NCBI GenBank assembly: GCA_046351535.1
Contig: JAXLYG010000005.1
Coordinates: 165,334-229,333, forward strand
DNA: 64,000 bases
Reading direction: 5' to 3'
Source: Polyangiales bacterium
GTDB lineage: Bacteria > Myxococcota_A > Polyangia > Polyangiales > Ga0077539
The first letter of the stretch is position 1. Every line of letters begins with the position of its first letter. The notes under the pieces were generated by a model. That model ran no database searches. It had not been told where the DNA came from and saw only the letters and a list, made by a program, of their open reading frames with translations. Positions 55,534 through 55,605 of this stretch are shown here, piece by piece. The position numbers and the translations under genes were made by a program.

Positions 55534-55605
55534 GTGGTCCGATCAGCATCGAGCCCTGTCTTACAAACAAGGCGAACCGGGGGCGGCACCCGGGGCCACG
55601 ACCAT
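55534..55605 (+). tRNA. Minimal tRNA-like (Val TAC anticodon loop CTTACAA), 69 nt + encoded CCA, mini D-arm, T-loop GGCGGCA
   Basis: Acceptor CGTGGTC(C)/GGCCACG, 7-bp anticodon stem GCCCTGT/ACAAGGC, T-like arm CCGGG-GGCGGCA-CCCGG. Confidence 0.3.

Follow-up and report, generated by a model that had tools for sequence, protein, structure and literature searches.

A putative compact tRNA-Val gene with a non-canonical core in a supernumerary tRNA array of Polyangiales

Introduction

Dense arrays of transfer RNA (tRNA) genes, the L-arrays, have at least 20 tRNA genes and at least two such genes per kb in the passages of PMC4758250 that delimit them. In the L-array of Anabaena PCC 7120 (the trn operon), 23 of the 26 tRNAs were functional and charged (PMC8421152). 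The functional tRNAs of such arrays can be inducible (PMC4758250, PMC8421152). Here, we analyze a 72-nt tRNA-like unit that occurs twice in a tRNA array of a Polyangiales bacterium (Myxococcota; assembly GCA_046351535.1). The array is located in a 64,000-nt stretch of contig JAXLYG010000005.1 (positions 165,334 to 229,333, forward strand), and this whole stretch is called the window below. The evidence leans toward the unit being a selected, non-canonical tRNA-Val gene of a supernumerary array, with a compacted core and with pairing, anticodon and discriminator kept.

In layout, the closest described molecules are tRNA-Pyl, especially that of Methanomethylophilus alvus, and the mammalian mitochondrial (mt) tRNA-Ser(UCN). 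These compact-core tRNAs have a gap of 0 to 1 nt between the acceptor and D stems, a D loop of 4 to 5 nt lacking GG, a variable loop of 3 nt and an elongated anticodon stem, which in M. alvus is interrupted; the tRNA-Pyl T loop lacks T-Psi-C (PMC7609411). In the literature that we searched, there was no description of Myxococcota tRNA arrays, of the unit family, of its compact or alternative-elbow architecture, or of tRNA-Pyl-like bacterial tRNAs for sense codons.

Structure of the unit and its likeness to known RNAs

Both copies of the unit are on the + strand. Copy 1 (55533..55604) was delimited by sequence, by the minimum free energy (MFE) fold and by a match to the covariance model R1 described below, and copy 2 (56597..56668, anticodon at 56626-56628) by repeat analysis and its own R1 match. 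A preliminary description, made from the DNA letters, had placed the copies one base too far to the right (55534-55605 and 56598-56669); folding of 55534-55605 exposed the shift, and the R1 matches gave the exact ends. Divided into its parts, the unit (72 nt with CCA) reads CGTGGTC-CGAT-CAGC-ATCG-A-GCCCTGT-CTTACAA-ACAAGGC-GAA-CCGGG-GGCGGCA-CCCGG-GGCCACG-A-CCA.

In copy 1, the acceptor stem is formed by 55533-55539 and 55594-55600, and seven pairs, one of them U.G, make up the helix. The D arm (stem 55540-55543, loop 55544-55547, stem 55548-55551) is followed by a single A at 55552. The anticodon stem (55553-55559 with 55567-55573) encloses the loop 55560-55566, where the anticodon TAC occupies 55562-55564. 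Next come the variable loop GAA (55574-55576), the T arm (55577-55593, T loop GGCGGCA at 55582-55588), the discriminator A (55601) and the encoded CCA (55602-55604). The MFE fold of the window unit is exactly this cloverleaf. The parts listed in the preliminary description (an acceptor, a small D arm, a Val loop, a 3-nt variable region, a T-like arm and an encoded CCA) are thus all present in the sequence. The 7-bp anticodon stem that it reported has six standard pairs out of seven, but the fourth pair from the loop is a C.A mismatch. Open reading frames (ORFs) across the unit had no Pfam match on either strand, and we take the ORFs that overlap it as spurious ones of GC-rich DNA.

The unit is a four-armed cloverleaf like a canonical tRNA-Val (RF00005 type), and the two agree in the acceptor stem (7 bp), the T stem (5 bp) and the anticodon loop (7 nt), as well as in the anticodon (UAC or CAC), A37, A73, the 3' CCA and a position among tRNA genes. 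Unlike the canonical molecule, the window form has no U8/N9 linker. Its D arm consists of a 4-bp stem and a 4-nt loop without G18G19, its anticodon stem has 7 bp, its variable loop has 3 nt, and its T loop is GGCGGCA rather than T-Psi-C-R-A.

The window unit shows every one of the compact-core features of tRNA-Pyl and mt-tRNA-Ser(UCN), a likeness of layout only. The tRNA-Pyl of Methanosarcina barkeri, at 72 nt with CCA, has the same length as the unit. Unlike tRNA-Pyl, the unit carries a sense anticodon for Val (UAC or CAC in all relatives) and not CUA, is located in a bacterial chromosomal array, and appears to have been recently derived from a 77-nt non-compact ortholog. No PylRS or pylBCD genes were seen among the array flanks examined (flanks only, not whole genomes). 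The unit had been likened at first to armless tRNAs. Both side arms are present, however, and the compact core of tRNA-Pyl or mt-tRNA-Ser(UCN) is the better analogy.

The T arm of the unit (CCGGG-GGCGGCA-CCCGG) is close to that of the alpha-proteobacterial two-piece transfer-messenger RNA (tmRNA; RF01849), whose consensus is CCGGG-GGCgGUA-CCCGG-...CUCCACCA, and the long-form relatives of the unit end in ...GGACUCC-ACCA. Window positions 55574-55604 are close to the RF01849 T arm and acceptor 3' strand (GACCCGGGGGCgGUACCCGGCGcCUCCACCA); the match to this model was only local, of 39 nt and 11.2 bits, the gathering score being 50. We rejected a tmRNA reading: an anticodon arm is present, the third acceptor pair is U3-A70 (in long forms, A3-U70) and not G3.U70, and a tag ORF is lacking. 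The tRNA-like domain of tmRNA works with EF-Tu and the ribosome, and by analogy the RF01849 T arm may serve as a functional precedent for the T loop of the unit.

Some members of the module resemble tRNA-Sec and the allo-tRNAs (PMC5389517) in that a 4-nt D loop caps a long D stem (6 bp in the related loci L060 and L068) and in being missed by standard finders. They differ in the standard 7/5 acceptor/T arrangement, without conservation of an 8th or 9th acceptor pair, and in having neither a long variable arm nor a UCA anticodon. An 8/5 or 9/4 register of the tRNA-Sec kind was considered for the unit, as T55532 could pair with A55601, and was discarded: the flanks in the relatives do not keep the pairing, and covariation favors 7/5.

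Homologs and the long and short forms

One pattern scan was made of each of the genome, metagenome and viral collections, and after removal of chance matches 14 distinct Val-type sequences were left. They came from at least 12 distinct Polyangiales/Myxococcota assemblies and from unassigned metagenome contigs, and from no other taxon. In the relatives, orthologous units fill one array slot (tRNA-Arg ... unit - tRNA-Pro) beside the same aminotransferase gene. BLAST and reading of the sequences found such syntenic arrays in relatives whose aminotransferase is 85-89% identical; at the syntenic site of L007 and L008, where the aminotransferase is 79% identical, the array is absent.

The covariance model R1 was built from nine long-form sequences with no short form included. 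It found both window copies with 54.8 bits (E 6e-11); for the remaining short forms, the scores were 52-61 bits. The preliminary description had regarded a lack of homologs anywhere as decisive against the unit. The homologs we found are syntenic and keep the Val anticodon and all four helices; we conclude that the unit is a selected gene of the tRNA type rather than a chance fold, and the initial view of a minimal tRNA-like unit, very unusual for a bacterial tRNA if functional, gained support from homologs, synteny and covariation.

The long form has 77-78 nt (L005, L006, L009, L016 and others) and the consensus GGAGUCC-AGGC-UCGAU-CAGY-AUCGA-CA-CCUGY-NUCACAN-RCAGG-NCUGA-CCGGG-GGCRGCA-CCCGG-GGACUCC-A-CCA. 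It has a 4-nt linker between the acceptor and the D arm, a 5-bp D stem, an anticodon stem of 5-6 bp and a variable loop of 5-6 nt. Its CACCUGC-NUCACAN-GCAGG segment resembles typical anticodon arms of bacterial tRNA-Val(CAC). The short form has 72 nt and was found in the window, L001 and L015 (all identical) and in L030 and L019. In the window, it has no linker, a 4-bp/4-nt D arm, an interrupted 7-bp anticodon stem, a 3-nt variable loop and no T-Psi-C; the anticodon is CAC in L019, where the 7-bp anticodon stem is perfect. The C.A mismatch is common to the window, L015, L001 and L030, with a C-G pair at this position in L019.

The short form occurs in the lineages nearest to the window (aminotransferase 89-100% identical), and the long form in lineages farther away and in another array type that is larger (L016/L047/L028). 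Since the short form is confined to the closest lineages of the window, we regard it as the derived state. The minimal layout first described is therefore true of the window unit, but the 0-nt linker, the 7-bp stem and the 3-nt variable loop are derived in one sub-lineage and are not family-wide. A 7-bp anticodon stem as a trait of the whole family was rejected: the two outer pairs exist only in the window, L015, L030 and L019, and the stem is of 5 bp in most long forms and of 6 bp in the L016 type.

tRNA-Pro nearly always follows the unit directly on the 3' side, with a 1-nt gap in the window, L015, L005, L009, L043, L049, L016 and L047. GC-rich hairpins of about 27 nt, different in sequence, are inserted between the two genes in L019 (2775-2802) and L030 (1512-1541); they could be terminators or processing sites. 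On the other side of the long-form units, between tRNA-Arg and the unit, we observed a spacer of about 70 nt that is GC-rich, conserved and able to form a hairpin (GGTCCGGCGCCGGGGTGTCCATCCCCGCTCGCGCCGG...) at L005 8400-8468, L006 11506-11570 and L009 9049-9116 (all on the - strand). The window has tRNA-Glu, a Gly-like gene and tRNA-Asp in its place.

Covariation and constraint on the anticodon

Among the 14 distinct sequences, 97.7% of the helix pair cells are paired and 12 of the 22 pairs show compensatory double changes. For the long forms taken separately, all 198 pair cells are paired (100%), with double changes in 8 of 22 pairs. In controls on the 14 sequences, slid partners gave at most four pairs with double changes, and none of 500 shuffles reached the observed covariation score. 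The 17-nt T arm is invariant across the family, so it shows no covariation and its stem is uninformative; the other three of the four helices are kept through compensatory changes. From the long to the short form, the acceptor underwent double substitutions at three pairs (G-C to C-G, A-U to U-A and U-A to G-C) and is still fully paired. The outer pair of the D stem (U-A/G-C) and two pairs of the anticodon stem covary too.

The anticodon is under a visible constraint. A35, C36 and A37 never change and only C or U occurs at position 34, so that in all 14 sequences the anticodon is that of Val, UAC in the window and CAC in most relatives; positions 32 and 38 of the same loop vary freely. The discriminator is A73 in every unit with an intact acceptor stem, and most units encode CCA.

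The window, L015 and L001 have the same unit (100% identity) and L019 has one with about 92% identity; the neighboring tRNA-Pro shows similar values. The flanking spacers, by comparison with L015, L030 and L019, differ or cannot be aligned, while the unit is conserved like tRNA-Pro. We count this pattern as support for purifying selection acting on the unit relative to the spacers. The full identity of the two window copies was borne out by repeat analysis; it is not evidence of function, because duplication or gene conversion explains it.

The D/T elbow and tRNAs on the same scaffold

Among 171 distinct ARAGORN-called tRNAs of the arrays, 134 combine a D loop containing GG with the T loop TTC, and 29 combine a D loop without GG (mostly CAG[C/A]) with the T loop NGC; only 2 are mixed, and 6 are of other types. 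Such a tight coupling of the two loops suggests a coherent alternative elbow. It is probably built on an A18.G55 and a G19-C56 contact, with which the CAGY and GGCRGCA loops of the unit are consistent. Watson-Crick covariation of the D loop with the T loop (CAGC/CAGT against GGCGGCA/GGCAGCA) found no support, as all four combinations occur.

In the window itself, the Gly genes (55350-55422, 55796-55868, 56181-56253, 56943-57015), Thr (57044-57116) and Pro (55606-55680, 56670-56744) also have a D loop without G18G19 (..CAG[C/A]..) and a T loop UGC... or GGC... (G55). The T loop of the Gly-like genes is UGCAAAU; a UGC T loop recalls the staphylococcal non-proteinogenic tRNA-Gly.

On viral contigs, the D hairpin and T loop pair of the unit (GAUCAGYAUC with GGCAGCA) occurs with other anticodons: GUC (Asp) with G73 in L060, CAU and UAU in L074, and CAU and UUG in L068. 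G73 is a discriminator of the Asp type. One scaffold carrying several anticodons is what a working tRNA scaffold would look like. The T arm of the unit recurs in a phage-contig tRNA, L074 11748-11821.

The compact layout also was found in related arrays and on a 113-kb viral contig, with several tRNAs in L060 having the anticodon at positions 30-32. A compact Met(CAU) unit is present in L016 and L047 and a compact Trp(CCA) in L016 and L028. The compact tRNAs lie at L016 442-512 and 1837-1907, L047 1197-1268 (- strand) and L028 2051-2121 and within L060 3429-4511. They have a 0-nt linker, a D hairpin of 3-4 bp, an anticodon stem of 7-8 bp and a variable loop of 2-3 nt, with anticodons CAU, CCA, UAC and GGU. 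A C.A mismatch at the fourth anticodon-stem pair from the loop occurs in three different compact tRNAs. The acceptor of the mini tRNA-Met of L016/L047 (CGTGGTG.../...CCACGACC) resembles that of the window unit, which hints at a mosaic origin; the short-form acceptor might have come from recombination with this mini tRNA-Met.

Proposed role and alternative explanations

As a tRNA-Val gene, the unit would be transcribed with its neighbors as a polycistronic precursor. RNase P would produce its 5' end, and the RNase P cut at the 5' end of tRNA-Pro, 1 nt past the encoded CCA, would set its 3' end, the one trailing nucleotide then being trimmed. The unit is probably chargeable. Valyl-tRNA synthetase would recognize it through A35, C36 and A73, which are identity elements of the E. 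coli enzyme, and the charged unit would decode GUA/GUG. The short D hairpin (with its CAGY tetraloop) and the T loop GGCRGCA would replace the elbow of G18G19 and T54-Psi55-C56. In the window lineage, the 4-nt linker and one D-stem pair were lost, the anticodon stem grew to 7 bp and the variable loop shrank to 3 nt.

Several observations weigh against a working tRNA-Val. ARAGORN never calls the unit (default, -ps80, -ps60 and mitochondrial modes), and in the Rfam scan RF00005 had no match to it at E<=10, either in the array or in a 97-nt stretch taken alone. The unit lacks U8, G18G19, T54, Psi55 and A58, keeping only C56 of the canonical core, and the window form has the C.A mismatch in its anticodon stem. 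The fold energy of the window copy is ordinary for its composition (z = -1.14), and for this reason the cloverleaf fold alone proves nothing. The 14-sequence alignment (A4) behind the covariation counts was fitted to the model and, since the sequences are closely related, few evolutionary events stand behind many compensatory cells. U33 is present in 11 of the 14 sequences, the L016 type having C33. Two further members look degenerate: the L050 unit has a broken acceptor 3' strand, and in a paralogue at L047 1916-1987 (- strand) the anticodon loop has 9 nt and matching identity features are missing. A scan for a sigma-70-like promoter consensus gave nothing above the shuffled expectation, and L-arrays are reported to be poorly transcribed except under stress (PMC8421152).

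The rejection by tRNA finders, the mismatch, the deleted linker, the non-canonical loops and the seemingly truncated L050 unit might all be expected of a decaying pseudogene, that is, a tRNA-Val relic in a young, horizontally acquired array that was homogenized by duplication or gene conversion. In such a case, the window copies would be identical for reasons other than selection, and arrays are known to hold pseudogenes (3 of 26 in Anabaena; PMC8421152). A relic, however, would hardly have acquired compensatory double changes in 12 of its 22 helix pairs, re-paired its acceptor helix completely after the long-to-short transition, evolved as slowly as tRNA-Pro beside diverging spacers, persisted across lineages with the aminotransferase only 85-89% identical, and never left the Val box. 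We therefore think decay very improbable. Selection could also have kept a tRNA-shaped element that does not decode: either a processing or "punctuation" module for tRNA-Pro maturation (with RNase P and exonucleases) or a decoy or sponge for a factor that binds tRNA, for instance a toxin, an anticodon nuclease or a modification enzyme. The position immediately 5' of tRNA-Pro in nearly all arrays, the invariant T arm (as expected for a sequence-specific binding site), the absence of the canonical elbow nucleotides and the 9-nt anticodon loop of the L047 paralogue are in line with this explanation. Still, a processing handle has no need for strict A35, C36, A37 and A73 and a C/U-only position 34; the unit is kept despite the hairpin of about 27 nt (L019, L030) or the 13-nt spacer (L006/L040) that separates it from tRNA-Pro; and the phage contigs show the scaffold with other anticodons and a matching discriminator. 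A non-decoding role is unlikely in our view.

In a further alternative, the charged tRNA would be kept from the ribosome and would give its valine to a non-ribosomal acceptor, through transferases of the cell wall, lipid, peptide or natural-product kind. An altered T loop would lower the use by EF-Tu or the ribosome, as in the staphylococcal non-proteinogenic tRNA-Gly. G55 T loops are common to several array tRNAs, including the Gly-like genes, and Polyangiales are rich in secondary metabolism. Non-translational roles were also left open by the authors of PMC8421152. Yet the flanks of the array contain neither a biosynthetic cluster nor a gene for an aminoacyl-transferase or a cyclodipeptide synthase, the array anticodons cover the commonest GC-rich codons of about 15 amino acids in the manner of a translation set, and the tmRNA precedent argues that a GGCGG T loop fits EF-Tu. 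The chance of such a role appears small.

Returning to the tRNA-Val reading, we tentatively entertain a broader possibility that we would not put forward with confidence. The units may represent bacterial tRNAs of a class not described so far, borne by phages and arrays, that would be fully functional in translation with a redesigned core (an alternative elbow of D-loop CAG[Y/A] and T-loop NGC, with tRNA-Pyl-like compaction added here). Such tRNAs might escape elbow-reading defense nucleases and toxins, or modification and quality-control enzymes, and still be substrates of aminoacyl-tRNA synthetases, EF-Tu and the ribosome. The transition from the long to the short form would then be a natural re-engineering of the tRNA core without loss of function.

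If the unit works, sense-codon tRNAs that combine a compact core like that of tRNA-Pyl with a non-canonical elbow exist on bacterial chromosomes and in phages, and the tRNA complements of such genomes are under-counted because standard annotation misses these tRNAs. The 77-nt and 72-nt orthologs of one array slot make a natural before-and-after pair for the tRNA core, in which, along with the loss of the linker, the anticodon stem became longer, the variable loop became shorter and the acceptor stem was re-paired. Compact scaffolds are of interest to genetic-code expansion as potentially orthogonal tRNAs. The units also bear on the purpose of supernumerary arrays, for example, translation under stress or evasion of tRNA-targeting defense.

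The tRNA array and its surroundings

The array spans 54655..57116, all on the + strand; ARAGORN called 16 genes, and RF00005 and R1 added more, which gave about 24 tRNA or tRNA-like units in 2.46 kb, a density within that of L-arrays. The window has a GC content of about 72%. Like the L-arrays of Anabaena PCC 7120 and others (PMC8421152, PMC4758250), this is a dense same-strand array of more than 20 genes with an apparently patchy presence among close relatives (absent in L007/L008), related arrays on IMG/VR viral contigs, and divergent members that escape detection. The order of its first part is Lys, Gln, a structured spacer, Asn, Ala, Arg, Glu, Gly-like, Asp, unit, Pro; then follow Glu, Gly-like, Asp, Arg, Glu, Gly-like, an interrupted Asp, unit, Pro, His, Glu, Gly and Thr. 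R1 matches to the Gly-like genes are weak, and the Gly(GCC)-like genes at 55350-55422 and 56181-56253 are missed by ARAGORN and RF00005 alike.

Upstream of copy 1, at a 17-nt spacer, is tRNA-Asp(GTC) (55441..55515, +; ARAGORN, RF00005), a part of the identical Asp+unit repeat. Downstream, one T separates the CCA of the unit from tRNA-Pro(CGG) (55606..55680, +; ARAGORN, RF00005 51.2 bits), where the T loop opens with GGCAG like that of the unit type and the D loop AGTCAGAA has no GG. A second tRNA-Pro(CGG) (56670..56744, +; RF00005 43.9 bits, T loop GGCGGAA) is directly 3' of copy 2; its divergence from the first includes compensatory changes in both the acceptor and the anticodon stem. Within the internal repeat of the array, the Arg-Glu-Gly part is 92% identical and the Asp+unit part 100%, and the downstream tRNA-Pro copies hold all the differences of their 93%-identical repeat.

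The genes on either side of the array are of an ordinary chromosomal kind and encode an SDF symporter, a multihaem cytochrome/TPR protein, the aminotransferase and lysyl oxidases; the ORFs overlapping the array had no Pfam match. By its aminotransferase, the organism, a soil or sludge myxobacterium, falls into Polyangiales (Myxococcota). A terminator consensus scan gave nothing above the shuffled expectation. BLAST of the array against phage and plasmid collections revealed no close mobile-element source, only generic tRNA-Pro matches such as the canonical tRNA-Pro of phiCbK, and no integrase or att site was identified for the window array. In the larger Polyangiales array of L016, an ORF at 1280-1780 has a Cys/His pattern judged by eye to be like that of an HNH endonuclease; such a gene, if borne out, would be in keeping with an origin of the arrays from phages or mobile elements.

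The tRNA-Asp(GTC) copy upstream of unit copy 2 is split in its D loop by a 229-nt insertion (56295..56523, +) similar to a miniature inverted-repeat transposable element. Its terminal inverted repeats are CTCTACTGTCCCG, and CTAG is duplicated on its two sides (56291-56294 and 56524-56527). The element has a long internal hairpin with 69-nt arms that are 78% complementary, and no second copy of it occurs in the window. An activated-sludge contig (L001) carries the same array with both unit copies and without the 229-nt insertion; the otherwise identical array indicates that the insertion was recent.

The L047 paralogue at 1916-1987 has the same T arm as the unit, a CAGC D loop, a 3-bp D stem and the 9-nt loop AUUGCAACC (UGC in the usual register); its discriminator is U, and it has no G3.U70. 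Finally, the 139-nt gap between tRNA-Gln and tRNA-Asn contains a spacer, 54864-54984, that has a multi-branched fold with an 11-bp closing helix (ATGGCGGAGGG...CCCTCCGCCAT), an MFE of -63.2 kcal/mol (z = -3.62) and no Rfam match. This spacer is 96% kept in L015 and partly in L030 and L019, and could be another unrecognized RNA.

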